Notes: a model not told the origin generated them from the letters alone. 56,030 bases of DNA from a virus (IMGVR_UViG_3300030380_002075:1-56030); one strand, 5' to 3'. Shown: positions 4,006 through 56,030, counted from the first letter of the stretch. Translations and numbers: made by a program.

Positions 4006-4156
4006 TCCCGTAGTCCTCTATGTTATTTTCTACTTTTTCAACAATTTGTCGCACGCGCTCTCGAGACAAGCCCATACGTTTCCCTATGGCAACAAAGGTC
4101 ATGTAATACTTCGTTCTCATTTCCCAGATCTGATAATCTCTCTTTTTAATCTTCAT
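3932..4156 (-). CDS. Sigma-70 region 4-like HTH protein
   Basis: MTFVAIGKRMGLSRERVRQI matches the T..EIG...GVTRERIRQI pattern of sigma region 4.2. Confidence 0.75.
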   Translation of the reverse strand: MKIKKRDYQIWEMRTKYYMTFVAIGKRMGLSRERVRQIVEKVENNIEDYGNVQDIRAAGNRKDNNTAKHGRQGV

Positions 4157-34862: not shown

Positions 34863-35336
34863 TTAGCTATCAGCAAATGGAGTGGCCAGTGTGCCTGATC
34901 CCAGCAAAGTACCATTAACCAGATACTCATCTGCGGCGATTGCTGTAATTTCAACGTATGATCCAGCAAGTCCACCTGTGGTAGAGCCATTCATAGAAAT
35001 CACATCGTTTGTTGCACCCGGTGCGAAACCACGAGCCTGAGATGTTGCACCTGCGGCCAACACAAGATTACCTACAAATTTGTCGGTGCCATCAGTTTTG
35101 ATGTCTAAGTCAGTTGCGGCAGTTCCAACAAAAAAGGTGTACTTGGCACCAATAGTGTCGCTAGTTGCAGATGGAAGGGTGACCGCACCGTCAGCATCGT
35201 TGATTTCAATGATACGACCAACGTGGTCAGCATAGGTTAGAGTAGTTTCAGCAGTGATATTTACTACAGCAGTTGAACCAACTGCGGTAAATCCGCGCTC
35301 AGATCTCACTGGACCTGAAAAAGTAGTTTGACCCAT
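34863..35336 (-). CDS. Minor capsid / fibre-like structural protein
   Basis: TTFSGPVRS N-terminus, ATPFADS C-terminus; RBS AGGAG favours the start at 35336. Confidence 0.7.
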   Translation of the reverse strand: MGQTTFSGPVRSERGFTAVGSTAVVNITAETTLTYADHVGRIIEINDADGAVTLPSATSDTIGAKYTFFVGTAATDLDIKTDGTDKFVGNLVLAAGATSQARGFAPGATNDVISMNGSTTGGLAGSYVEITAIAADEYLVNGTLLGSGTLATPFADS

Positions 35337-35404
35337 TGTCATCTCCTGTCTTGGGTTGCGTCAACCGCCCAATGCGGTTGTCAGAGACAATTAAATCTTA
35401 CAAC

Positions 35405-35452: not shown

Positions 35453-36361
35453 TTATGCCGCGCCGGCTGTGCCGAATACGGACCGCCAGTCTGAGACGCC
35501 AAAGCTGTAACGCTCACGGGCCTTAAACCGCATATTTCCGGTGTCAAAGTCACCTTCCATAGCAGTCTTGATTGGCGAACGGTTAAAGTATTTAAAACCG
35601 TTAGGTGCATCAGTCATGACAAAGAACGCATCGGTGTCTGTTAAGAAATGGTTAACTACTGCCCCTTCGGGAAGCATACCCATGTTCTTCAGAGCGTTTG
35701 CGTCGTTGTCTGCTGTAGCTGAACGGAGGTTAGAGTTCAGAACGCGCTCTGCAATAAACTGAAGTTCCTTTGGAATAATCAGTTTAGTGCCGCGAACTGC
35801 AATCTTAAGTCCACGCTCATCCGTAAATCCAGCAATGTCGATCAGCATTTGCTCAAGAGAAGTCTCGTTGAGATCAGCCGCTACGGACAACTGGTTACGT
35901 TGATTTCCAGACAGGGACGGATGCGCTGATGAACACAGTGCCGCACCATCTCCCACAGGGAAGGTGGTGTCGAACGCATTGTTCAAAATAGCCGCCGCCT
36001 TGATCTGCTTAGTCTGTGCCATTGAACGAGCAAGGGCTCTCGTATATCGAGAGGCCAGACGATCATATAGATTGTCCTCGATAGCTTCCTCCGTAATTGA
36101 GAAGGCCAGTGCGATTGTCTCGTGTGTGTAACGAGCAGTATACGTCTCTTGTGCATCGTCAAATGTGATGGCAGAGCCTTCACCCTTGACTGGTGCAGTA
36201 GAGAAACCACCCAGCATTACTTCTTCTTCAAACGCACGATCCGAAGATTCTTCTGTGAAGATCTCGGCGTGTTCGTTCTCGTAACGCGAATATTCCATCC
36301 CGAACAGGGCATTAAGGCCCGGTTCAAGCTCTTTCGCTAATTGTGCGCGAGAGATTGCCAT
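35453..36361 (-). CDS. Major capsid protein
   Basis: MAISRAQLAKELEPGLNALFG, EEAIEDNLY, DFDTGNMRFKARERYSFG; strong terminator downstream. Confidence 0.9.
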   Translation of the reverse strand: MAISRAQLAKELEPGLNALFGMEYSRYENEHAEIFTEESSDRAFEEEVMLGGFSTAPVKGEGSAITFDDAQETYTARYTHETIALAFSITEEAIEDNLYDRLASRYTRALARSMAQTKQIKAAAILNNAFDTTFPVGDGAALCSSAHPSLSGNQRNQLSVAADLNETSLEQMLIDIAGFTDERGLKIAVRGTKLIIPKELQFIAERVLNSNLRSATADNDANALKNMGMLPEGAVVNHFLTDTDAFFVMTDAPNGFKYFNRSPIKTAMEGDFDTGNMRFKARERYSFGVSDWRSVFGTAGAA

Positions 36362-44935: not shown

Positions 44936-46408
44936 TCAATAGTACGCAACAACTTTAGCAGATTGATCCGTATCTTCCCAATCATCCGTGGGTAACTGCA
45001 CAAAATTACCCTGACGATAACGCATTAACGCCTGCGTCATGGAATCCACCAAATCATCATGCTCACCATTTGGAAAGGCCGCGACCTCCTCAACAAGTTC
45101 CTCGGCCCAAGGTTCGTCGGGGGCCCAAACCATCCCCGCCTCAAACAAAGGCGTCACAGCATGTACCCGCGAAACTTTATCGTTACCCTTAGAAGGCGTG
45201 AAGTTAACCACAGGAATCCCAGTCTGTCTCATCTCGTGCGTCAACGGCATACCAGATGCCTTAGCCTCCACGATGACGGTGTCGGGGTCCCAAAAGTTAT
45301 ACTCCTCAAACGCTATGTTTTTGAGTTCTGGAAAGTCCCATCGTCCTTTTTTAGAGTCGAGTAAGATGAGGTTTGGGGCTCCTCCTTCTTCGGGATAAAA
45401 GACGCCCCACGTCGTGATGGCCGAGTAGTCCGCCGTCTCACGCTTTGAAAACGCCGTATCATAGCTCTGAATCACAAACTGTAATTGGGGTACGGTTTCT
45501 TTCTGCCAAACGTTCCACCATTCCCGCTTGATAATCGCGCTTTCTTCACCCGTCGGATTCTGCTGATACTGAGCGTTCCACTTGCTGACAGGTATAGATG
45601 CACGGACCCTTGTCAGATCATCTAAAGACCAGAACTCAGGCCAGCACGGCTCTTCCTCTTCTTCACCAGAATTAAAAATAGCCGGTAGCTCTACAATCTC
45701 CCACTGGTCAGCAAGGGGATCCTTGGCCATCGCTCGTAGTAACTGACCCGTCATATCCTTCTCAGACCACCGGGTCTGAACCAGAACAATACTGCCTCCG
45801 GGCTGTAAACGCTGACGAGGTCCACCAGTATACCAGTCCCACGCGTCATCAAATCCAGAGTTCGACATCGCCGTCTGCTCCGAATGCGGGTCGTCAATAA
45901 TAATCAAATCACCACCGCGGCCCGCGAGGTTCGAGCCCACACCCACCGCATAGTACATACCACCCTTATTCGTATCCCATCGGCCGGATGCCTTGGAATC
46001 AGCGGCCAACTTAACCTCTGAAAAAATATCCTGATAATCATCCGACTCAATCAGGTTCTTGGTCTTACGGCCAAAATTCACAGCAAGCTCTGTCGTGTGC
46101 GTCGCCTGAATGATCTTCTTGCTCGGATTACGGCCCATGAACCACGCAGGGAAAAGATAAGACGCAAACTCAGACTTCGTGTGCCGCGGTGCCATGTTGA
46201 TTATCAGACGCTTGAGTTCGCCCCTAGCAACGCGCTCTAGTTTTTCAGCAATAATTTTATGATGCCGCCCTGCAATGAACTCGGGCCAGACATGCCTGAC
46301 AAACGACAAAAAATTATTTTGGCACTTTTCAGTCTTCTCTAATTGAGCAAGTCGCAGACGCAACTTGAGTTCCTTATCAGAGAGCAATTCTAGGTGTTGT
46401 GAATCCAT
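44936..46408 (-). CDS. terL: Terminase large subunit
   Basis: INMAPRHTKS Walker A, IIIDDP Walker B, QTRW, YQQNP, SYDTA, HDDLVDS. Confidence 0.95.
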   Translation of the reverse strand: MDSQHLELLSDKELKLRLRLAQLEKTEKCQNNFLSFVRHVWPEFIAGRHHKIIAEKLERVARGELKRLIINMAPRHTKSEFASYLFPAWFMGRNPSKKIIQATHTTELAVNFGRKTKNLIESDDYQDIFSEVKLAADSKASGRWDTNKGGMYYAVGVGSNLAGRGGDLIIIDDPHSEQTAMSNSGFDDAWDWYTGGPRQRLQPGGSIVLVQTRWSEKDMTGQLLRAMAKDPLADQWEIVELPAIFNSGEEEEEPCWPEFWSLDDLTRVRASIPVSKWNAQYQQNPTGEESAIIKREWWNVWQKETVPQLQFVIQSYDTAFSKRETADYSAITTWGVFYPEEGGAPNLILLDSKKGRWDFPELKNIAFEEYNFWDPDTVIVEAKASGMPLTHEMRQTGIPVVNFTPSKGNDKVSRVHAVTPLFEAGMVWAPDEPWAEELVEEVAAFPNGEHDDLVDSMTQALMRYRQGNFVQLPTDDWEDTDQSAKVVAYY

Positions 46409-46997: not shown

Positions 46998-47022
46998 AAA
47001 AAAAGCCGGCACAGGGCCGGCT
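46998..47022 (-). terminator. Intrinsic terminator
   Basis: AGCCGGC-CCTGT-GCCGGCT followed by a T run. Confidence 0.8.
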
Positions 47023-47039
47023 CGATTGGTTGGGGCTGG

Positions 47040-47213
47040 TTAGTCGTCGCGGGTAAGCATAGCGGATTGGTGCGCGTCTACGTATCTCGCCAGTCGCACT
47101 AAATCGTCCACGGCGTCGCGTTTCGCAATGTCGCCCGCATCGGGATTCTGCAAAACCTCGCAGTAGATACGAACCGCACTAACCCACGTTGGCGTCAAGT
47201 TAACCGCGCTCAT
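47040..47213 (-). CDS. 57-aa hypothetical protein absent from the ORF track
   Basis: MSAVNLTPTWVSAVRIYCEVLQNPDA...; ATGA overlap upstream, terminator downstream. Confidence 0.75.
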   Translation of the reverse strand: MSAVNLTPTWVSAVRIYCEVLQNPDAGDIAKRDAVDDLVRLARYVDAHQSAMLTRDD

Positions 47214-47560
47214 ACTGTCACCACTGGAGCATCGGTTAGGCGTTGAGTGACGATGTCGAAATACACCCGCTCAAACTCGCCGATCTCGACGACGTCACGG
47301 CCGATAATTAACACTGGCTCGAAATTGCGTTGGGCGAACCTGTACCCGATCCCGTAGAAGTTCAAAACGCCGTTAAGCCGCTCCCGTGTGGTCACAGTGG
47401 GCCAACCTGCCAGAGTTAACGCTATTATGTCCCCCTCACACTTGCAGGCTATCTCGTTACCGTGCAGGTAAATCTCGAAGCCGTTAGTGGACGTATTGCC
47501 ACTGGTCAGACTGTCGCCCCGCGCCCAAGCTTCAACAATGTTTCTAGTAACTTTTCTCAT
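47210..47560 (-). CDS. Conserved early phage protein
   Basis: YLHGNEIA..GWPTVTTRERLNGVL. Confidence 0.8.
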   Translation of the reverse strand: MRKVTRNIVEAWARGDSLTSGNTSTNGFEIYLHGNEIACKCEGDIIALTLAGWPTVTTRERLNGVLNFYGIGYRFAQRNFEPVLIIGRDVVEIGEFERVYFDIVTQRLTDAPVVTV

Positions 47561-47564
47561 GGTT

Positions 47565-47669
47565 TCTATTCCCTATAAGTTGCCGGCCGTTGTTGGCCAG
47601 TCGTGAGTATATAAGAGGTTATGCGAGAAACGCAATAAAAAGGCCGGCGGGATCGCTCCGGCCGGCCTT
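47565..47669 (-). promoter_or_regulatory. Terminator + promoter + leader cassette junction
   Basis: GC hairpin with T run, then TTGCGT..TCGCATA..TATACT, then GGCC hairpin; homologous to 48171-48270. Confidence 0.7.
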
Positions 47670-47684
47670 AAGTTTCTAGATTAA

Positions 47685-48164
47685 TTAAACGCTATCAAAC
47701 GTTAACCGAATGTCGCCGTCGTTTATCATCTCGCGCACCACGTCCCGAACCGCCGTATCAAACTGGCTATCCGAGATAGCCTCAGTGATCCGATCATTTA
47801 TGGCGTCGTCGTCAAGAAAATCCATATCATCAACGGTGTTTCTGACAACATCCTCGACGGCGCTCTCAAAAGAGCGTGAACTGGTAAACGCGTCGTCCAT
47901 CGCTTCTTCCAGCATCGACGTAAAAGCCGACAGTATTTCGGGTTCAATCAATGCAAATATACCCGCCGTGACCTTCTGATTTTTTTCGAGGTAATCGTCG
48001 GCACGTTTCCGCTCCCGTTCAACCTCGATCTCAGACACTCGCAGTTTGTTCGTGAGTTTATCCAGTTCAACGCGTAGATCGTCCGGCGTGAACTCGGCCT
48101 TCATCGGCTCAACGTTATCCACGTTATCCACGTTGGTCTCAGTGTTTTGGTTTAAATCAGTCAT
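47685..48164 (-). CDS. Acidic early protein
   Basis: Start MTDLN after GGGAG; about 41 D/E vs about 17 K/R in 159 aa. Confidence 0.8.
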   Translation of the reverse strand: MTDLNQNTETNVDNVDNVEPMKAEFTPDDLRVELDKLTNKLRVSEIEVERERKRADDYLEKNQKVTAGIFALIEPEILSAFTSMLEEAMDDAFTSSRSFESAVEDVVRNTVDDMDFLDDDAINDRITEAISDSQFDTAVRDVVREMINDGDIRLTFDSV

Positions 48165-48170
48165 GTTAAA

Positions 48171-48270
48171 TACTCCCGTAGTTAAGGCCGTCATTGGCCA
48201 GTGTTTAGTATGCGATAAAAGCAATACGCAATGCAATAAAAAAAGCCGGCAGGATCACTCCGGCCGGCTT
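48171..48270 (-). promoter_or_regulatory. Terminator + promoter + leader cassette junction
   Basis: GCCGGC hairpin with T run, TTGCAT..TCGCATACT, AACTACGGGAG. Confidence 0.7.
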
Positions 48271-48286
48271 GTATTAGTCGCAATGA

Positions 48287-49480
48287 TTACGCGGCGACTT
48301 TATCCAACAATTTACCCGCACGGCGTTCGATGTCGATCCGGTTATCTTGGTGCGGAATGTCCCGAGCGATAGCAGTGATCGCTTGAGCCGCGTCCCAGAC
48401 TGATTCAACCGGCCGGCCTTCCTCTTTCTCGTGGCGTTGCATAGCGGCCTTAGCCATGCGCTGAGAAAGCCCCGCACGTTTGGTTAAGAAGTCCAACCGA
48501 TCATCGTCAGTCTTGGCGACGTTAGCCGACTTGGCTTTCTGGACACCCTCGACAAATGTAGCCGTCGCACCAGTGGCAAACGATTGCAATGCGGGACGGG
48601 CCTCGATAGCGAACCGATCTGGCGCGAACTTGGTATGACGAATCTTGATTTCGTGGAAGTTTTCAACGCCCCACAAATTACGATTCATACAAACGCCGCG
48701 AAGGTACATCGCCGCGACGCCGGCCGTCTTGCTACCGGTCTCGGAGTTCCACGCATAGAAGCCTCGGAACATTAGATCAGGCTCGCCGTTTGGCAGTTTA
48801 CCAACCTCAATTGGATTGAGGTCATCAACCAGAAAAACAAAGATGTCTCGATCACTGGCGAACAGTGTCGTCGTATCTTTGGTGACCGGCACATGCGGAT
48901 CATAAACCGCCATGCCATTCTCGGCTCGGCTAACCATCATACCGGGGACTTTCCAACGTCCCTCACTGGCGTCAACCAGATCTTTGATAGGCTTTAGGAT
49001 CTCATGATCGTAGATCCGGCCGTAGTCAGCACCCGTTGCGGCTCGCAGTTCACCTGAATCGCCTCGGCTATACACCTTAACCAAATCGCGAGATCGGTTA
49101 TGTTGCAAACCCCACTGCAAACAGTCAGCAACCATCGGAGCGGGTAAGTCTTTGAGGTAACCGGCCGGCGCTCCTGCCAACTGAGATAGCTGACCAAATG
49201 ACCAGTTAGTAGGCATGTTCTCGCCCTCGATCCCGTTCTCATCACGGTACTCGATAAAGACGTCACCCCTCGATGGATTGTCGGCATCAACAGTCCCGAC
49301 GATATTCATCTTATGAGTATCGACGATGCGAGACTTCATCTGACCGGCGTCAAGCTTCTTGTGAGCCAACATATCATCCAGTGAAAGGAACCGCTCATCA
49401 TCAGGGCGGTTAAACCAGTTAGATGAAACAGCAGAGTTGCCGATGCCATGTGCAAAGGCGTTGGTTTGATAAGTCGTCAT
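48287..49480 (-). CDS. DUF932/DUF945-like protein
   Basis: WSFGQL..APAGYL, GFYAWNSETG, VCMNRNLWG, IRHT; start MTTYQ after GGGAG. Confidence 0.75.
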   Translation of the reverse strand: MTTYQTNAFAHGIGNSAVSSNWFNRPDDERFLSLDDMLAHKKLDAGQMKSRIVDTHKMNIVGTVDADNPSRGDVFIEYRDENGIEGENMPTNWSFGQLSQLAGAPAGYLKDLPAPMVADCLQWGLQHNRSRDLVKVYSRGDSGELRAATGADYGRIYDHEILKPIKDLVDASEGRWKVPGMMVSRAENGMAVYDPHVPVTKDTTTLFASDRDIFVFLVDDLNPIEVGKLPNGEPDLMFRGFYAWNSETGSKTAGVAAMYLRGVCMNRNLWGVENFHEIKIRHTKFAPDRFAIEARPALQSFATGATATFVEGVQKAKSANVAKTDDDRLDFLTKRAGLSQRMAKAAMQRHEKEEGRPVESVWDAAQAITAIARDIPHQDNRIDIERRAGKLLDKVAA

Positions 49481-49572
49481 AATCGTTTCTCCCGTAGTTA
49501 TGACTGAGCGAAATTGCTCACTGGTAATAATCCGATAAAACGCAACACAATGCAAGTAATTTTTTAGAAAAT

Positions 49573-49604
49573 AAAAAGGCCGGTTAAGTTGCCCCAACCG
49601 GCCT
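49573..49604 (-). terminator. Intrinsic terminator
   Basis: AGGCCGGTT..AACCGGCCT followed by a T run. Confidence 0.75.
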
Positions 49605-49609
49605 CGGTT

Positions 49610-49957
49610 TTACGCCTCGGTAAACACCCTGTTTTGATATGCTATCCAATCCTCGCAAGATTGCGTGTTCTTTGGATATGCTTTCTCATTAGCCTTTATA
49701 GGTCTTATGCTTCGGGCGGAAGCTATAAACATTCCCACCGGTAGTGGCGGGGTATCGATGTCCCAATCAAAACCCCCTAATCCAGTGCATTCGACTCCCT
49801 TCCCGTAAACGCAGGCTACTGCCTGATTAAGTTGGCTACCGGCCGCGTCTTTAATTGCGGTTATAGGGTCTTGCGCTTTTGCCCACCTGCTTCCAGAAAG
49901 GTTGATAGCTAAGAAGTAATGACCATTAGGCTGTTTAAAAGGCGTTGATTCACTCAT
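49610..49957 (-). CDS. Hypothetical early protein
   Basis: RBS GGGAGG; own promoter and terminator. Confidence 0.8.
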   Translation of the reverse strand: MSESTPFKQPNGHYFLAINLSGSRWAKAQDPITAIKDAAGSQLNQAVACVYGKGVECTGLGGFDWDIDTPPLPVGMFIASARSIRPIKANEKAYPKNTQSCEDWIAYQNRVFTEA

Positions 49958-50038
49958 GGCGAATCCTCCCGTAGTTGATTGTTAAACATCTACCTTGGGG
50001 GCTTCCCAAGGATGACTTAGATTTCCAAGTCATGTGGT

Positions 50039-50068
50039 CATTATCGCATACCTGATTTGGGTTGTCAA
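50039..50068 (-). promoter_or_regulatory. Sigma70 promoter overlapped by TATGCGA
   Basis: TTGACA-N17-GATAAT with extended -10 TG. Confidence 0.75.
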
Positions 50069-50103
50069 GTTAATTTTTTAAAAAGTTATTTGGGGTTGCT
50101 CAT

Positions 50104-50127
50104 AAAAAAGCCCCGACTGGCGGGGCT
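50104..50127 (-). terminator. Intrinsic terminator
   Basis: AGCCCCG-CCAGT-CGGGGCT followed by a T run. Confidence 0.8.
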
Positions 50128-50133
50128 CGATGG

Positions 50134-50229
50134 TCAGCGACGGCGTCGCCGCTTAATTGGTTTCTTCATTGCTTTATCAACGGCTTCTTCGCCGTAAATT
50201 AATTTGGCAATCCAATTCAATAAAAACAT
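50134..50229 (-). CDS. 31-aa microprotein with poly-Arg tail, absent from the ORF track
   Basis: MFLLNWIAKLIYGEEAVDKAMKKPIKRRRRR; TGATG coupling; terminator follows. Confidence 0.7.
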   Translation of the reverse strand: MFLLNWIAKLIYGEEAVDKAMKKPIKRRRRR

Positions 50230-50474
50230 CAATCCCCCTCAACGTAGCTCATGTTAAAGCCCAATTTTTTACAAGTATTAGTAACGCCCTCGGGCAGTTC
50301 AAAGACGCCGTCATAGTCAACCAGAACGACGCCGTCAAACCACAGACCGCCGCTCCCCCCTTCATCGCCTAATGTGGCGTGTTCAAAACCAATCGGCATA
50401 CCCCGTTCATCGAGATAAACCGTCCAGTCATTACACGTCACATAACGATTCAATAAGCTTTCATGTATTTGCAT
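50229..50474 (-). CDS. Hypothetical early protein
   Basis: GFEH..GDEGG..GLWF...LVDYDGVFELP; RBS GGAGG. Confidence 0.75.
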   Translation of the reverse strand: MQIHESLLNRYVTCNDWTVYLDERGMPIGFEHATLGDEGGSGGLWFDGVVLVDYDGVFELPEGVTNTCKKLGFNMSYVEGD

Positions 50475-50664
50475 CAGATTCCTCCACTGCATAAGTGTCG
50501 CACCAACCGATGGCTTCAAAAATTTCATGGTCAGTCAGCAATGCGATTCGTTCAACAACAGCCAACCGAACTTGAGCCGGAGTAATATCCCGGCCGTCTT
50601 CTTGATAAGAAATGATGGTGAAGGCGATGTCGTACATGTGGTTGTACGCTGTTTGATCTGTCAT
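50461..50664 (-). CDS. Hypothetical early protein
   Basis: Start MTDQTAYNH inferred from ATGA overlap; RBS GGAGG. Confidence 0.75.
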   Translation of the reverse strand: MTDQTAYNHMYDIAFTIISYQEDGRDITPAQVRLAVVERIALLTDHEIFEAIGWCDTYAVEESDANT

Positions 50665-50828
50665 AGCTCGTCCTCCTGTTCGACTGTAAAAACGACGCAC
50701 AATTGAACGTCAGTATTGACAAGGTTTGACTCTTCCCATTCATACCAATCATTGCCTGTTTGTTCTGCGAACTTCATTAACGCTTCTATTAATTCCTGCC
50801 GTTGCAAGCCTTTTTTTAATTTAATCAT
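50661..50828 (-). CDS. 55-aa hypothetical protein absent from the ORF track
   Basis: MIKLKKGLQRQELIEALMKFAEQTGNDWYEW...; preceded by AACTACGGGAGG. Confidence 0.75.
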   Translation of the reverse strand: MIKLKKGLQRQELIEALMKFAEQTGNDWYEWEESNLVNTDVQLCVVFTVEQEDEL

Positions 50829-50873
50829 GGCCGATTCCTCCCGTAGTTGTTAGCCAACTTGCATAGTATGCGA

Positions 50874-51335
50874 CTAATGCGAACAAATCAAGTCCCAAAG
50901 TGATTTCCAGTCAAACGGCTCAGTCAAACGAATTACTGGCTCGACTTTAGATATGCCTTCCATTTTCAGATCGAGAGCGTCGTATCCGCGATACAGAAGT
51001 ATTTCCGGTTCAGATGTACGGGGCTGTCTTTTAACAAGCACCCAAGTTGAAGCATGGCTATGAATATTAAGAAAGGCCACTTGGTGCGGCCGCAGATCGA
51101 CAGTGTTCCCTTTAGTCACCTTTAACTCGATCAGATGTAGTGCTCCTTGGTCATCACAAACTAAGAGATCGGGTATGCCTGCGGTCAACCAAGTCTCTAA
51201 TCGAGTCAATATTAACTTGCGGTCAAGCTTCTTCGCCCCGTCCCGAATTTGTCTGTAAAAGTTGCTCTCCGTCGTGTTGGTCTTCTTCTTGGTCGCTTCC
51301 TCCCATGGGAGTAACGTCGATGATGTTTGACTCAT
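50874..51335 (-). CDS. PD-(D/E)xK nuclease, Holliday junction resolvase / VRR-NUC-like
   Basis: ESNF..RLE..GIPDLL..IELK..LRPHQ; start uncertain because it overlaps terS. Confidence 0.8.
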   Translation of the reverse strand: MSQTSSTLLPWEEATKKKTNTTESNFYRQIRDGAKKLDRKLILTRLETWLTAGIPDLLVCDDQGALHLIELKVTKGNTVDLRPHQVAFLNIHSHASTWVLVKRQPRTSEPEILLYRGYDALDLKMEGISKVEPVIRLTEPFDWKSLWDLICSH

Positions 51336-51813
51336 AGGTATCTCTTAATTCGTCTAAGGCTTTCATAACTTCTTCTTTACTCATTTGGTCAATCGAGCCA
51401 TGTCGTATTTCAGATTTACTGACGTAGATGTCTCCTTGAGCTTGACCTCGACGATACTCCGCTTGAACTGCGGCAGAATAAGCCCCGTTCTGAATAGCTA
51501 AGTCCCGAATGTTTTGTAGATCCCGAACATGACGCTGATAAGTAATGCCATATTTGGCGTCCAGTTCATCTCGATATGCTTTGATTGCCGCCACAATATG
51601 CGGACAGATCAAAGGGTTTGTCATTTCATACGCTCTGGTATGTGCGCTTGAGGGCGGAAATCCCGCGTTGATAGCGGCTTCTCTCATGGTTATCTGGCCG
51701 TCGTTGCTAACAAGCTCCTTAACAAATAGCTCCTGACGGCGCGTAAGTTTTTTACTTCTTAGCTTATTTAGCTTGTCTTTATCTGCAACGGCATTTCGTT
51801 TAGTTCTAGGCAT
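51223..51813 (-). CDS. terS: Terminase small subunit
   Basis: LTRRQELFVKE..AAINAGF HTH; SAAVQAE..RG; IIDVTP. Confidence 0.75.
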   Translation of the reverse strand: MPRTKRNAVADKDKLNKLRSKKLTRRQELFVKELVSNDGQITMREAAINAGFPPSSAHTRAYEMTNPLICPHIVAAIKAYRDELDAKYGITYQRHVRDLQNIRDLAIQNGAYSAAVQAEYRRGQAQGDIYVSKSEIRHGSIDQMSKEEVMKALDELRDTYESNIIDVTPMGGSDQEEDQHDGEQLLQTNSGRGEEA

Positions 51814-51865
51814 TCAAGTCTCCGACAGTTAAAAGCAGTATCGGAGATAAAATATAGTCCCTTTT

Positions 51866-52185
51866 CTTATATAGAGCAAAATTCAAAAAATATTTTTTTG
51901 ACCAAGACCCCCCGCTAACGCACTTTTGATTCTTTGATTTCTTGGTTACATATTTATGGTTACATGGTGTAACGGTTTATGTAACTGCTGAAAGTATTGA
52001 TACATATAGTATAGAGCGATTTGGTTACACGGTTACACCGGTTACGGGTGTTTTTCGTAAAAATATTTTTTCTAATTTTCCTGCTATATAAGTAACGTGC
52101 GTTTTTTGTAACCCAAAAAAGAAAAGCCCCGTGAGCCGTGGCCTACGGAGCCTGATCCTTTGTTACGCAATCTGTAACGGTTACA
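51866..52185. repeat. AT-rich GTTAC/GTAAC iteron cluster with inverted-repeat arms
   Basis: 12 GTTAC/GTAAC copies; imperfect IR at 51866-51897 and 52059-52092. Confidence 0.8.
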
Positions 52186-52204
52186 CCGCGGGCTGTTTTT
52201 CCTC

Positions 52205-53542
52205 CTAACCTGCTTTTTTATTTACAAGATGATAGTCGTGAATAATTGTTCCCAACTTGGCATCACCTGCCCAGTATGGTTGAACCCATTTACGCTTGAT
52301 TAACCCGCTTTTATAGTGAATTGTTCGCCAGTGACCACGTCTCAAGTGTTTACGCTGACGGGTTATGCACTGTTTGAATATCTTTCCATACAGCTTGACC
52401 CCCGCATCTTTGGGTAGGTTGATCTCGACAACCTTTACCTCGTTGATGGGCTCGTGCAATACCAAATGCTTTTCGATATCGTCGTTGTCCACGATCTCTA
52501 TGTCGCGCTCTACTTCACGTTGATAGTTCAATAGACCAAGAACCGCAATTACGAAACGTAAGTCCATGGCCCACGAATGTCCATCAAGCCATTCCGAAGA
52601 AGGAGTTCCGTTGTTTATAAAATTTATGTAATCTGCTTGCCAGTTACTGGCATATCGATCTTTTGTAAGTGGAGCAAACAAATGCTGACAAAAGCCAAAT
52701 CGTAAAAACAGCCCGTTCAAGAAAGCCTTTTGAGCTTTTTTATTCGAGTAATAATCAACATATTCTTGTGTTAATATTTCTATACCTCTCTTTTCTGTAG
52801 AGTGCTTTTGGTAGTCCTCCCTCGACATGGGTTTTCCGGTACGAAAGTCGATTAGCAGTCTTTCATTAAGCTCTCTTTCCTCCTCACCATAGGAAAACAA
52901 AGCTCCACATTTGGGTGCTATAAGTGTTTGCTCGTTTGACTCAGGACGGTGAATAAATTTATGAAGCTCAAACCAATTATTTTCAAAACCCATCCGTGGG
53001 GTGAGGCGGTAATCGGGATACCATTCTGGATTAATGGTTCTTTCGCGTACCCTTTTAGCCCTTTCTTTTGGACTGGCTTGTTCAGCTTCAAACTGGTTAT
53101 AATTTTCCCAACCAACCTTCTGTATTAAATAACCAAATCGTACTCCCGTCATCTCTCTACTAAACCCCGGATCCCATTCAATCCACATCGAATTAAATGC
53201 GGGAATGCCTGTCATGAACGCATTCAATAAATCTTTTGGCGGCATCTCACAGGCCTCTATAGCGTGTTCAATCAAGCTTTGCCCAATGTTTATCTTGGTT
53301 GCGTTTTGAAAAATGTTATGTGTTTCTCTGAGGAGAAATTTTTCTCGTCCTTCAAAGTTTTTACACATCTTCTTAATAGCCTTTTTGTCCCCCTGCTCCT
53401 TCAGGTTCAGTACATCTGTGTCATAAAGTTTAATAGCCGCCGCTACTGCCTCTGATCTAGAACGTTTACCAAACGCTTTGTGAAAAGACGTTAAGTTTAT
53501 CGACGCTTCGCTAATCGCGTCGTGTGTTGGATAATTGCTCAT
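52205..53542 (-). CDS. Hypothetical protein with C-terminal HxRRGHWR motif
   Basis: 445 aa; RKHLRRGHWR..WVQPYWAG. Confidence 0.8.
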   Translation of the reverse strand: MSNYPTHDAISEASINLTSFHKAFGKRSRSEAVAAAIKLYDTDVLNLKEQGDKKAIKKMCKNFEGREKFLLRETHNIFQNATKINIGQSLIEHAIEACEMPPKDLLNAFMTGIPAFNSMWIEWDPGFSREMTGVRFGYLIQKVGWENYNQFEAEQASPKERAKRVRERTINPEWYPDYRLTPRMGFENNWFELHKFIHRPESNEQTLIAPKCGALFSYGEEERELNERLLIDFRTGKPMSREDYQKHSTEKRGIEILTQEYVDYYSNKKAQKAFLNGLFLRFGFCQHLFAPLTKDRYASNWQADYINFINNGTPSSEWLDGHSWAMDLRFVIAVLGLLNYQREVERDIEIVDNDDIEKHLVLHEPINEVKVVEINLPKDAGVKLYGKIFKQCITRQRKHLRRGHWRTIHYKSGLIKRKWVQPYWAGDAKLGTIIHDYHLVNKKAG

Positions 53543-53790
53543 ATCTCGTCCTCCTGTTCTTCTTCAAAACCATCGGGCTCAAAAGTCTTAACAAGGTGTT
53601 GCCAAAGCAGTGAGTCATACTTGACTTCATCATAAGTCTGACGTGGCAGTTCAGTGATCTCAGTGATCTCAAGAACGGCTCCGGTCTCTTCGTCTGCTTC
53701 GTAATAAACTTCATAAGATTTTTCTAACCAATGTCGGTAATCGACGTGGTCTATTATTTCAGTATGGATAGCTTTCATTCGTTTAATCAT
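53539..53790 (-). CDS. Small acidic protein
   Basis: Downstream of the 53822-53850 promoter; start uncertain (53790 or 53778). Confidence 0.65.
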   Translation of the reverse strand: MIKRMKAIHTEIIDHVDYRHWLEKSYEVYYEADEETGAVLEITEITELPRQTYDEVKYDSLLWQHLVKTFEPDGFEEEQEDEI

Positions 53791-53821
53791 GACTAAAATC
53801 CCGTTTGTTGACCGAAACATT

Positions 53822-53850
53822 AAAGTATGCGCTTATCGCATACTTGTCAA
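53822..53850 (-). promoter_or_regulatory. Sigma70 promoter with a palindromic operator in the spacer
   Basis: TTGACA-N17-TACTTT; AAGTATGCG-CTTAT-CGCATACTT at 53823-53845. Confidence 0.8.
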
Positions 53851-53861
53851 CCTCTACACAT

Positions 53862-53935
53862 AAAAAAATCCCCGAGGGTCATAGGGGCGACGCCACGGGG
53901 ATTTTCAGAGTCAACTACGGGAATAGTTGTATGTC
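53862..53935 (-). ncRNA. Candidate 3'UTR-derived antisense sRNA
   Basis: Hairpin CAACUA-UUCCCG-UAGUUG complementary to the AACUACGGGA leaders, followed by a terminator-like hairpin and U run. Confidence 0.4.
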
Positions 53936-53940
53936 GAGAG

Positions 53941-54141
53941 TCATGATAATGACTTATCAGATGATTGCAACCTTTTTCTTTCATTTTCTCGGGCAAGTTC
54001 ACCGACTAGCCTTGCAAATTCACCAAGCTCCTCTCGGTTTGCAAGGTAGCCGCGCCCTCCAATACCCTCCATGCAGAGTGTGAAATCTTCATCGCGGACG
54101 ATACCCGCTTTGTATGCTAGGTCATGAACAAGGTCAGACAC
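53941..54141 (-). CDS. Hypothetical protein
   Basis: 66 aa, GTG start, overlaps the upstream stop. Confidence 0.65.
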   Translation of the reverse strand: MSDLVHDLAYKAGIVRDEDFTLCMEGIGGRGYLANREELGEFARLVGELARENERKRLQSSDKSLS

Positions 54142-54391
54142 TGTCTCTACCGCGAAGGGTTATATCTAACCATATCGCTCGATCTTCAACCTTCTTCGCT
54201 TTTTTATATAGGCGTTTGGCCTTGGCATTCAAGTAACCCAAGTACCAACGTTTAAGAGCGATCACGCTTTTTGCCCCTAGACGGCGCGGTGTGTTGGTAT
54301 AAGCCACAGGTAGTTTTTTCTTTTTTACCAATTTTAGACTGCCGAACTTTTTCGCCACGACGTGCATTGATTGCGCTATTGCCTTCCACAT
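54134..54391 (-). CDS. Basic hypothetical protein
   Basis: 85-aa ORF overlapping the next gene; start uncertain. Confidence 0.45.
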   Translation of the reverse strand: MWKAIAQSMHVVAKKFGSLKLVKKKKLPVAYTNTPRRLGAKSVIALKRWYLGYLNAKAKRLYKKAKKVEDRAIWLDITLRGRDSV

Positions 54392-54569
54392 TTCTACAAT
54401 TTAACTCCGCTACTAGCATGGATCTCTTTGGGCGATACGAAGTATCCAGAACATAATACTTGTTATTTTTATTTTTGAACATGCGGTGCGTGAGCCGTGA
54501 TTCGCGGACTAGGAAGTCCAGTTCTTCCATTGCGTCCAGTGGATTGTCGAACAGTGTTGCGCTAGTCAT
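54252..54569 (-). CDS. Hypothetical protein
   Basis: 105 aa; coupled to the RHH gene. Confidence 0.65.
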   Translation of the reverse strand: MTSATLFDNPLDAMEELDFLVRESRLTHRMFKNKNNKYYVLDTSYRPKRSMLVAELNCRNVEGNSAINARRGEKVRQSKIGKKEKTTCGLYQHTAPSRGKKRDRS

Positions 54570-54759
54570 AGACGTTTATCCGACGGGGATCTTTCTTGTT
54601 TCCATACCGATGTTGCTTGTCGAAGCCCTGCTCGATGTACGTTTCAAAGATCAGGCGCAGTTGTCCGGAGATAGTTCTGCCATCTTTCTGAGCAAGATCC
54701 TTAATTTCCTCGTATACGTCACGGGGAACAAGCACACTTTTCCAACGTTGTGTATCCAT
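54562..54759 (-). CDS. Ribbon-helix-helix (Arc/CopG-like) DNA-binding protein
   Basis: WKSVLVP-RDVYEEIKDLAQKDGR-TISGQLRLI; RBS AGGAGG. Confidence 0.75.
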   Translation of the reverse strand: MDTQRWKSVLVPRDVYEEIKDLAQKDGRTISGQLRLIFETYIEQGFDKQHRYGNKKDPRRINVYD

Positions 54760-54772
54760 AGGCCCCTCCTTA

Positions 54773-54831
54773 TCTGCGATTATATGCGAATCTATGCGAA
54801 CATACAATAAAAAAGCCGCCCGAAGGCGGCT
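54773..54831 (-). promoter_or_regulatory. Terminator, then promoter with three tandem heptads
   Basis: GCCGCC-TTCG-GGCGGC with T run; TTGTAT-N17-TATAAT; T(A/C)TGCGA at 54773, 54783 and 54793. Confidence 0.75.
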
Positions 54832-54835
54832 CTGA

Positions 54836-55054
54836 TTATTTTTTACTAATCGTCACTTTGAAGTGCTTCTCATGAAGCAGACAATTACTGATTTCGTTTA
54901 TTGCATGACTCAACTCAGTGACTTGATCTTCAGTCCAATCGAAACCATTGCGTCCTTCGATAAAATCGTCGCCTATATAAACAGACCCTTCGCCTAAGAC
55001 CCATTCCAAGCCTGCGGCTATCCTTTTATTTACTTTGATGGTTCTAATGCTCAT
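54836..55054 (-). CDS. Hypothetical protein
   Basis: 72 aa; ATGA coupling; RBS GGAGG. Confidence 0.75.
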   Translation of the reverse strand: MSIRTIKVNKRIAAGLEWVLGEGSVYIGDDFIEGRNGFDWTEDQVTELSHAINEISNCLLHEKHFKVTISKK

Positions 55055-55269
55055 TTCCCCCTCCTGTCTTCAGTAACATAGAGCCACTGTTCACCAGCCA
55101 TAAAAGGAATTTTTCTAGCAACTGCTTTTTCTGCCGGAGTCCAAGGGTAATCGTCAGGATCTTCAATCATGGTTGAACCTGAACCCTCACCAAAGACTGA
55201 TCTTAAAACACTCATTTCGGTATCGCTCAAGTTGATGCGATAACCTCTTTTTAGTCTTGTTACTTTCAT
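55051..55269 (-). CDS. Hypothetical protein
   Basis: 72 aa; MKVTRLKRGYRINLSD. Confidence 0.75.
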   Translation of the reverse strand: MKVTRLKRGYRINLSDTEMSVLRSVFGEGSGSTMIEDPDDYPWTPAEKAVARKIPFMAGEQWLYVTEDRRGK

Positions 55270-55314
55270 TACTCATCCCCTATTAGAAGTGCCGCCCCGA
55301 AGGGCGGCGGTTGA

Positions 55315-55596
55315 TTAAACACTTAACTCTCTTTCAATCTCACGCAACTTGTCGTAGACCTCATCCCATCCAAGACAGAACTTTTCATCGTCCCAACCTT
55401 CGTACTCAATCCAGTACCCCCGGTCGTTACCAAGATCATCAATGATGATTTCAATCCCCAACTTTTTAGCGAGCCGTTTGGCTTTACCGTAGTAAGGGTC
55501 GTACTTTCGCTTGGTTTTTTTTGGTTTAAACGCCTTATCTAAAACAGGCAGACTGAACCACCGAGCTAACGCTTGGTTGTCACGTTTTTTCAACAT
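55315..55596 (-). CDS. Hypothetical protein
   Basis: Start MLKK after AACTATGGGA; AKRLAKKLGIEI..GYW. Confidence 0.7.
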   Translation of the reverse strand: MLKKRDNQALARWFSLPVLDKAFKPKKTKRKYDPYYGKAKRLAKKLGIEIIIDDLGNDRGYWIEYEGWDDEKFCLGWDEVYDKLREIERELSV

Positions 55597-55658
55597 GATA
55601 AATATTCCCATAGTTAATTGTTAAACATCATTAAGTTGGGGCTTCCAACTTATCTAAC

Positions 55659-55687
55659 ATGATACAGCATGTATGCGATAAACGCAA
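55659..55687 (-). promoter_or_regulatory. Sigma70-like promoter with heptad
   Basis: TTGCGT-N17-TATCAT with TCGCATA in the spacer. Confidence 0.65.
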
Positions 55688-55789
55688 CCATTAAAGTTAA
55701 ACTAATTTGGTATTAGTCCCATACCAATATGATATTGGTCTAATACCGTATGCGATTTTAGCAATGTTATAATGCCCTTTCCAAAAAGG

Positions 55790-56030
55790 AGGAACACAAT
55801 GGAAATCACTACGGAAGTAAAAGTTAAAAGTCCTTACCTCACCCTCGACAGACAGACTGGGACTTACACGTTTAAGGCCGAGCGGGAATTTAAAGAAGGC
55901 AGACTGACTCGAAAGTACCTGACTGCCGACGAAGCGATCTGGCAGGTTCGTAAGTATGAAGCCGCCAAGAAACAGCTACGGCCGAATGAGAAGTTTGTAA
56001 CTTTCTAAAAAATAAAATCCTGGGATTTAC
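55790..56030 (+). repeat. Terminal direct repeat, right copy (contains ORF 55799-56008)
   Basis: Matches 1-241 at 234 of 241 positions. Confidence 0.95.

Follow-up and report, generated by a model that had tools for sequence, protein, structure and literature searches.

The question raised by this locus is why a short leader that precedes the start codons of several early phage genes should also occur once in the opposite orientation, within a hairpin just before a transcription terminator. The window, by which we mean the whole stretch of DNA that was analyzed, is the 56,030 bp virus record IMGVR_UViG_3300030380_002075, a complete or near-complete IMG/VR entry with an estimated completeness of 98%. 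Almost every gene in the window is carried by the minus strand. The ribbon-helix-helix (RHH) gene, to whose operon the initial annotation had assigned the opposite-orientation copy, was recognized as such by its Pfam domain (Table 1). No match at the DNA level was obtained among phage records, either by megablast of positions 47000-56030 or by blastn of positions 47600-51000, and no relatives were found in bacterial genomes by a protein alignment search. The nearest terminase protein was that of Pelagibacter phage HTVC027P, and since the identity was just 60.7%, the transfer of transcript data from this phage was ruled out because of its distance.

Table 1. Positions of the features discussed in the text, numbered from the first nucleotide of the window, and homologous promoter sites in relatives.
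Feature	Position	Strand	Remarks
Small early genes	55.6-47 kb		No assigned function
RHH gene	54762..54562	minus	PF07878, E 1.7e-07
66-aa ORF	53941..54141	minus	Last gene of the RHH operon; stop codon 53941-53943; 3' end holds the candidate promoter
Candidate promoter	53943..53970	minus	-35 TTGCAA (53970-53965), 16-nt spacer, -10 TATCAT (53948-53943)
Homologous promoter site, subgroup B (L036)			TTTGCA-17-TATAGT
Homologous promoter site, subgroup C (L014)			TTGCAA-16-TATAGT
Homologous promoter site, subgroup D (L168)			TTGACA-16-TATAGT, 11/12 matches
Predicted small RNA, about 70-76 nt	53862..53937	minus	5' end placed from the candidate promoter; 5' to 3': short tail, hairpin 1 with anti-leader, variable linker, terminator hairpin, U7
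Anti-leader, 20 nt, CAACUAUUCCCGUAGUUGAC	53910..53929	minus	UCCC loop 53919-53922
Inverted-repeat arms	53912-53917 and 53924-53929		Plus-strand 10-mer copy 53913-53922
Intrinsic terminator	53862..53905	minus	Arms 53865-53877 and 53893-53905; strong stem, run of 7 U
50-aa ORF	53931..54083	plus	Begins 8 nt past the plus-strand copy, opposite the 66-aa ORF (antisense); judged to be no gene
Leader AACUACGGGAG(G)	50838..50848 (10-mer 50839-50848)	minus	10 nt before ATG 50828
Leader AACUACGGGAG(G)	49966..49976 (10-mer 49967-49976)	minus	9 nt before ATG 49957
Leader AACUACGGGAG	49489..49499 (10-mer 49490-49499)	minus	9 nt before ATG 49480 (DUF932 protein)
Leader AACUACGGGAG	48173..48183 (10-mer 48174-48183)	minus	9 nt before ATG 48164
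Variant leader AACTATGGGAATA, long form AACUAUGGGAAUA	55603..55615	minus	Before ATG 55596
Variant GACTACGGGA / GACUACGGGA	4006..4015	minus	Between a GAGG Shine-Dalgarno sequence and ATG 4005 (UvrD-type helicase), abutting the ATG
Variant leader GGGAATAG / GGGAAUAG	before 47560	minus	
Leader-like CAACAAACGGGA	53799..53810	minus	First gene past the terminator, ATG 53790
TATGCGA / TCGCATA repeats	53823-53845, 54770-54800, 50855-50885, 48195-48225, 55665-55760		
Shared upstream module	49976-50030, 55615-55655	minus	Recurs in relatives
Terminase	46408..44936		Structural genes further on too
Primase, UvrD-type helicase, family A DNA polymerase	6-0.3 kb		

The exact 10-mer AACTACGGGA was found 5 times in the window, 4 times on the minus strand and once on the plus strand; dinucleotide shuffles contained 0.21 matches on average, and 5 matches were reached in 0 of 100. 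When one mismatch was allowed, 9 matches were obtained against 3.21 expected, and this number was likewise reached in 0 of 100 shuffles. The 4 minus-strand copies are located 9 to 10 nt upstream of ATG codons, and since each of them is followed by a G, GGGAG(G) is considered to act as the Shine-Dalgarno sequence. This agrees with the initial annotation, in which the leader overlapped the Shine-Dalgarno sequences of these same 4 genes, and the variants that it had listed before the genes starting at 55596, 47560 and 4005 were also located there.

Read as RNA from the minus strand, the opposite-orientation copy forms CAACUAU-UCCC-GUAGUUG, a 7-bp stem that includes the closing U.G pair and carries a UCCC loop (-5.6 kcal/mol), and the U7 terminator follows. 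The previous description of this site, as the sole opposite-orientation copy and as a hairpin exposing UCCC before a terminator, thus held. The element begins 11 nt past the stop codon of the 66-aa ORF. The fold of hairpin 1 was matched by 9 of 200 shuffles, and the 76-nt RNA was predicted to fold into 2 hairpins with -29 kcal/mol (z -5.04), for which 0 of 200 shuffles were as good. The U7 terminator was seen on the minus strand only, which together with the fold of the 76-nt RNA indicates that the orientation is that of an RNA. The terminator would be common to the RHH operon and to the predicted small RNA. A search of positions 53700-54100 against Rfam 15 returned no family at the gathering score, including the family of the P1/P7 c4 RNA, and the best match, to NsiR1, reached 20.7 bits against a threshold of 39 and covered mainly the terminator; the candidate RNA is outside every curated Rfam 15 family.

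To obtain relatives without presupposing the element, we retrieved them through the neighboring 66-aa protein, the homologs of which are 45% to 98% identical. In the reading frame of this protein, third codon positions accounted for 11 of 20 variable sites, and there were 32 synonymous against 16 nonsynonymous substitutions. The protein belongs to no Pfam or PHROG family, and the protein atlas places it in viral hypothetical clusters only. In a single-protein search, the 20-mer CAACTATTCCCGTAGTTGAC followed by a terminator was present at 8 of 8 loci, even at one where the protein was just 64% identical and the intergenic sequence differed. The alignment-based protein search identified the exact 14-nt core UUCCCGUAGUUGAC in 27 of 31 viral-contig loci, while at the other 4 loci (L149 to L152) the element was absent and another gene followed directly. 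The 55 loci from metagenome contigs comprised 31 with the core, 20 with another architecture, 1 with a deletion (L204), and 3 that were too short.

Wherever the protein search retrieved a locus with the element, the core was the same, and it stayed fixed as protein identity fell to 45% and as flanks, linker and inner terminator stems diverged. In an alignment of 17 unique sequences, the block varied at just one column, in the 5' arm; the linker, the inner terminator stems, and the spacer between the stop codon and the block all varied. A scan in which the 4 loop bases were left free yielded 41 stretches; the loop was TCCC in all 24 that were followed by a terminator, and the remaining 17 were chance matches within coding DNA. 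The bare 14-mer gave at least 112 stretches, mostly chance matches in coding DNA, and stretches were kept if a terminator followed; among the matches listed, 16 had the CAACTA arm and 2 (L050 and L124) had CAAATA. We conclude that the conserved element is genuine and very probably functional.

The terminator hairpin and the U run were present in all 27 unique variants, and the minimum-energy fold contained 2 hairpins in 25 of the 27. In the 2 subgroup D variants, an uncompensated C-to-A change in the 5' arm abolishes hairpin 1, and AUAUUCCCGUAGUUGAC is kept, which indicates that the constraint is on the leader-pairing sequence and not on the stem. No covariation was detected in the stem, where 0 of 7 pairs had changed on both sides (RNAalifold on a MAFFT alignment). 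This alignment misaligned the terminator stems and gave no covariation there, and single-sequence folds were used for the stems.

Two situations in which the 66-aa protein or its flank occurs without the element were also noted. In L204, a metagenome contig of 1285 nt, a 30-nt deletion between TGACTC repeats has taken the spacer and the whole hairpin, and the terminator and the downstream promoter are kept. This contig could be used as a natural knockout of the anti-leader hairpin, provided that the phage can be found, and the deletion shows that loss of the element can occur. In a sister clade, consisting of L149 to L152 and 20 metagenome loci (for example L209, L221, and L235), the 66-aa homolog is located after an RHH-like gene and abuts another gene, and the element, the terminator and the tagged leaders are all absent.

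We identified a candidate promoter for the RNA inside the 66-aa ORF, with the -10 hexamer overlapping the final codons and the stop codon. The scan used the sigma-70 consensus, which is an assumed rule and may not be the host's, and in the same region it gave 13 matches against 12.8 expected, so that one match is weak alone. However, a promoter-like site was flagged at the homologous place in all 4 subgroups (Table 1). The Leu codon within the -35 hexamer was TTG in 34 of 34 unique genes, with 5 codons in use at each of 3 other conserved Leu columns, and positions 2, 3, and 6 of the -10 hexamer were invariant despite the use of TGA, TAG, or TAA as stop codons and differing last residues. Furthermore, 2 lineages (L080/L166/L248 and L103/L246) have an interrupted ORF, one owing to an insertion of about 85 nt and the other to a tandem duplication, and in these the final 35 nt or so stay attached to the element. 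A start 6 to 9 nt past the -10 hexamer would yield an RNA of about 70-76 nt, with its predicted 5' end level with hairpin 1 or slightly ahead of it. Rather than being only the 3' untranslated region of the RHH operon, the predicted RNA is probably transcribed from a promoter of its own within the ORF. Of the small-RNA reading given in the initial annotation, we thus retain a conserved minus-strand RNA element that is located by the terminator and complementary to the shared leaders, and we consider it to be probably more than the 3' end of the operon transcript.

The leaders were examined across the family in the element-bearing loci. All 40 unique contexts of the exact 10-mer in the sense orientation had an ATG 6 to 13 nt further on, mostly at 9 nt, and the base after the 10-mer was a G in 37 of them, while the 14 unique contexts of the antisense 10-mer were all the element itself. 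Orthologous genes retained the 11-mer AACUACGGGAG, hereafter called the tag, and the flanking untranslated bases varied. The distance between the leader and the sigma-70-like promoters was also variable, often with a 5' hairpin in front of the leader, and this variation combined with the fixed spacing to the ATG fits a role at the RNA level. In the metagenome loci with the element, we counted 12 exact leaders and 24 leaders with at most 1 mismatch in 102 kb, as compared with 0 leaders in 55 kb of the loci without the element (21 loci), and no leader was found upstream of any ATG in L149 to L152. This co-occurrence of element and leader may represent a single evolutionary split.

Since the leader and the anti-leader are both invariant, the search for co-variation in relatives proposed in the initial annotation is uninformative. 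Among the leaders with a single substitution, 14 of 20 unique ones carried A-to-G or C-to-U changes, which are G.U-compatible with the RNA and account for 6 of the 30 possible single substitutions of the leader, and 6 were true mismatches, a bias that is suggestive at most given the excess of transitions, the ribosomal need for GGG, and the shared ancestry of the contexts. The invariant AACUAC of the leader may be read by something else, such as a protein or the ribosome. In the distant relatives L004, L006, and L007, a leader-like AACTATGGGAG or AAATACGGGAG is located before an ATG. No convincing anti-leader was identified in L004 to L007 (28% to 31% identity for a 445-aa protein), the records of which are 20% to 51% complete, and the nearest anti-leader-like strings were located outside a terminator context.

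Pairing between the RNA and the leaders was predicted with the 31-nt 5' part, because duplex energies for the whole RNA are meaningless when the G+C-rich terminator stem pairs with anything. With this part, 7 of the 8 best start regions among 82 minus-strand ORFs were leader-bearing. The duplex energies of the 8 leader-type sites ranged from -18.2 to -23.5 kcal/mol, and the net energies, after the costs of opening both partners, from -1.3 to -11.1 kcal/mol; for the 7 stronger sites, the corresponding values were -19.9 to -23.5 and -5.0 to -11.1 kcal/mol. At these 7 sites, 12 to 15 contiguous pairs were predicted, or 15 to 21 when counted across internal loops. The net energies of 7 non-leader start regions ranged from -0.8 to +11.1 kcal/mol. 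The longest predicted pairing was obtained for the leader of gene 55596 (duplex -23.5, net -11.1 kcal/mol), in which the C-to-U change makes a G.U pair, and the 4005 variant had a net energy of -10.8 kcal/mol. The site before 47560, which had previously been said to pair over a shorter stretch than the other leaders, was indeed the weakest (duplex -18.2, net -1.3 kcal/mol). At a cut-off of -14 kcal/mol there was no separation, with 20 start regions against a mean of 18.6 and a maximum of 38 for shuffled seeds. The net energies are modest, and the model suggests that pairing would be feasible and not strong.

The explanation best supported by these sequences would be a small-RNA gene with one-to-many targets. 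As expected of a trans-acting base-pairing small RNA, the locus has a 3' intrinsic terminator and a conserved seed that is complementary to translation initiation regions. That the element functions as a trans-acting anti-Shine-Dalgarno small RNA on the tagged early genes is a proposal for and against which we find the case evenly balanced. Under this proposal, positions 53862-53937 on the minus strand would be a small-RNA gene, and its RNA, about 70-76 nt long, would arise both from the ORF-internal sigma-70-type promoter and from transcripts that read through from the RHH operon. In this RNA, a variable linker would join a weak 5' hairpin to the intrinsic terminator. The seed, made up of the UCCC loop and the 3' arm of the hairpin (UUCCCGUAGUUGAC), would pair over 10-15 bp with the tag and cover the Shine-Dalgarno sequence. 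The targets would be the early genes 50828, 49957, 49480, and 48164 and, through variant leaders, the genes at 55596, 4005, and 53790, and occlusion of the ribosome-binding site would reduce the translation of all tagged genes together. The sequences themselves show the complementarity to the leaders, the conservation, the terminator, the promoter-like signal, and the joint occurrence of element and leaders. Accumulation of the RNA, pairing in trans, and repression are all 3 what we infer from the DNA, and so are repression as the direction of the effect and an early shut-off as its timing. The proposal is weakened by the modest net energies and the lack of separation from shuffled seeds at the loose cut-off, by the invariance of both partners, by the L204 deletion, and by the leader-like sequences of the incomplete distant relatives, in which no anti-leader was detected. 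We also propose, with more hesitation, that the 11-nt tag may mark an early regulon and that a dedicated RNA of about 70 nt may set the translation of the whole early program. Both the tag and the seed would then be frozen because one RNA must match many targets.

A different possibility is that the anti-leader acts in cis. The first gene past the terminator (ATG 53790) has a leader-like site about 110 nt downstream of the element, with which the anti-leader would pair in read-through transcripts of the RHH operon, so that this gene would be translated from its own promoter only and be insulated from upstream transcription. In relatives, this site reads CAACGAACGGGAG, CAACUACACGGGAG, or CAACUGAACGGGAG, and the first gene after the terminator is always leader-like. 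The duplex predicted at 53790 has an energy of -21.0 kcal/mol (net -6.9), and intramolecular pairing is kinetically favored as an established principle. However, it is the canonical leaders 3 to 6 kb away to which the element is a perfect complement, whereas the neighbor at 53790 requires an internal loop; moreover, a strong U7 terminator intervenes between the 2 sites, and the conserved promoter right upstream of the element would have no role. We therefore consider action in cis to be unlikely.

Less probable again is that AACTACGGGA is a DNA site, recognized irrespective of its orientation by a phage DNA-binding protein that would act at early promoters as a roadblock or a regulator; the copy at 53913-53922 would then be a further site of this kind, close to the promoter at 53845-53850. 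This would be in line with the location of the copy within a DNA palindrome, CAACTA-N6-TAGTTG, and with the abundance of operator-like TATGCGA / TCGCATA sequences in the early region, where an RHH protein is also encoded. Yet the second arm of the palindrome is not conserved in subgroup D, and it is the ATG to which the sense copies are held at a fixed spacing (40 of 40 at 6-13 nt), while the distance to the promoter is variable. Between the element and the next -35 hexamer there are 55 to 60 bp, a variation of half a helical turn, and the orientations are as uneven as 40 sense against 1 antisense per genome type.

It also seems improbable, and more so than a DNA site, that the element is a structural or protein-binding hairpin at the 3' end of the operon, serving in boxB/nut-like antitermination or as a stabilizer, with a leader match that has no pairing function. 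Although the hairpin is small, located immediately before the terminator and kept across relatives, an exact 10-nt complement of an over-represented motif is very unlikely to arise by chance. The compensatory changes by which stems of the boxB/nut type are kept were seen in 0 of 7 pairs, and in subgroup D the mismatch is uncompensated and the hairpin is lost from the minimum-energy fold, but the sequence is kept. Finally, a role of the plus-strand copy as leader for a genuine gene on that strand, the counter-case named in the initial annotation, or for a plus-strand RNA is very improbable: the ATG at 8 nt, which with its upstream sequence resembles the 55596 leader, is found only in the window's subgroup A and is replaced elsewhere by GTG or TTG at 4-6 nt, the ORF is not conserved (lengths of 9-93 aa; identities of 9-18/50 in subgroups B and C, and of 11/31 and 2/9 in subgroup D), its frame has 4 synonymous versus 16 nonsynonymous substitutions against 32 versus 16 in the opposite frame, the scan flagged no promoter-like site upstream on the plus strand, and the neighboring genes are all on the minus strand.

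The trans-acting small RNA proposed here can be compared with several known regulators. In Staphylococcus, RsaE and RNAIII carry UCCC in a hairpin loop that pairs with the G-rich Shine-Dalgarno sequences of several mRNAs, and a UCCC loop is similarly exposed in the candidate RNA. In contrast to the candidate, which has no Rfam match at threshold, they are host-encoded and usually contain several C-rich loops; pairing here would furthermore run through the 3' arm of a weak stem, over 10-15 bp. DapZ and MicL are small RNAs derived from 3' ends, with a promoter inside the ORF and a terminator in common with the mRNA. They resemble the candidate in the location of the promoter in the upstream coding sequence, the conserved seed before an intrinsic terminator, and the variable linker, but they are chromosomal, Hfq-dependent, and enterobacterial, whereas both the gene and the targets are viral here. 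The sar RNA of P22 is a cis-antisense transcript of a single target, and the CI RNA of P4 acts by termination at 2 target sites. Like the candidate, both are small phage RNAs that pair with phage transcripts in regulatory regions, and the sar region also encodes ribbon-helix-helix repressors, as does the RHH operon; unlike them, the candidate RNA has its gene apart from its proposed targets and is complementary to many ribosome-binding sites. The c4 RNA of P1 and P7 is cut from the transcript of its own target.

The c4 RNA (immI) blocks translation by binding to complementary regions of a phage mRNA in the vicinity of the ribosome-binding site, and its complementary sequences are thought to lie in loops (PMC12197685). 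Of the known regulators, c4 works most like the candidate RNA, being a small phage RNA that acts on a ribosome-binding site via a loop sequence, although it controls one operon (ant) as compared with at least 5 to 8 separate tagged genes here. The 2 RNAs have no similarity in sequence or structure, as judged from the search of positions 53700-54100 at the Rfam threshold. In T4, Shine-Dalgarno sequences with GGAG are cleaved by the RegB endoribonuclease, and the translational repressor RegA binds to many initiation regions (PMC3014915). The likeness is in the phage-wide inactivation of many early mRNAs through a shared feature of the initiation region, and the differences are that the effectors in T4 are proteins, whereas an RNA is proposed here, and that the tag is 11 nt long, as compared with 4 nt or an A+U-rich region in T4.

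If true, the small-RNA reading would provide an RNA-based counterpart of the RegB/RegA shut-off and a new design for the timing of the lytic program, in the form of a one-to-many RNA switch in uncultured environmental phages. To our knowledge, phage RNAs that regulate genes of their own phage are confined to a few model temperate phages and have one or two targets each. No phage RNA aimed at a shared leader of many genes was found in literature listings and abstracts, where the motif strings were present, among the matches listed, in unrelated primer or oligonucleotide contexts. Such regulators would be recognizable from sequence alone, by a leader motif that is over-represented and has just one reverse-complement copy, located beside a terminator. 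With a tag of 11 nt and an RNA of 70 nt, the system is small enough to be tested directly with synthetic parts.

A few further observations were made in the window and its relatives. The TATGCGA / TCGCATA repeats are operator-like and located in or beside sigma-70-like early promoters, and a perfect 9-nt inverted repeat, AAGTATGCG/CGCATACTT, is situated between the -35 and -10 hexamers at 53823-53845. A ATGCGATAA box is present after the terminator of the element in all relatives. The repeats are probably binding sites for a phage repressor, and this repressor could perhaps be the RHH protein. Around a homopolymer-rich stretch, 140 nt are shared by 2 minus-strand ORFs in different frames, 54569..54252 (105 aa) and 54391..54134 (85 aa). 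Neither ORF had a family match in Pfam or PHROGs, and the overlap in 54134-54569 could reflect a frameshift, either programmed or made by the assembly, or nested genes.

It was also noted that the leaders of genes 49957 and 55596 share an upstream module, in which a G+C-rich hairpin and GATGTTTAACAAT are followed by the tag, and which may be an element for the processing or stabilization of the 5' untranslated region. The CUACGGGAGG of the leader (49966-49976 and 50838-50848, minus strand) corresponds to what we take to be the conserved 16S rRNA segment under the "341F" primer; if so, the seed of the RNA may be complementary to this rRNA segment as well, possibly by coincidence. The sole curated RNA family found in the window was the Mu-gpT-DE RNA motif (Rfam RF03012), which was matched at 35334-35386 on the minus strand with 56.6 bits (gathering score 49, E 1.7e-10), downstream of ORF 35453..36361 and just upstream of and overlapping the 5' end of ORF 34863..35342.
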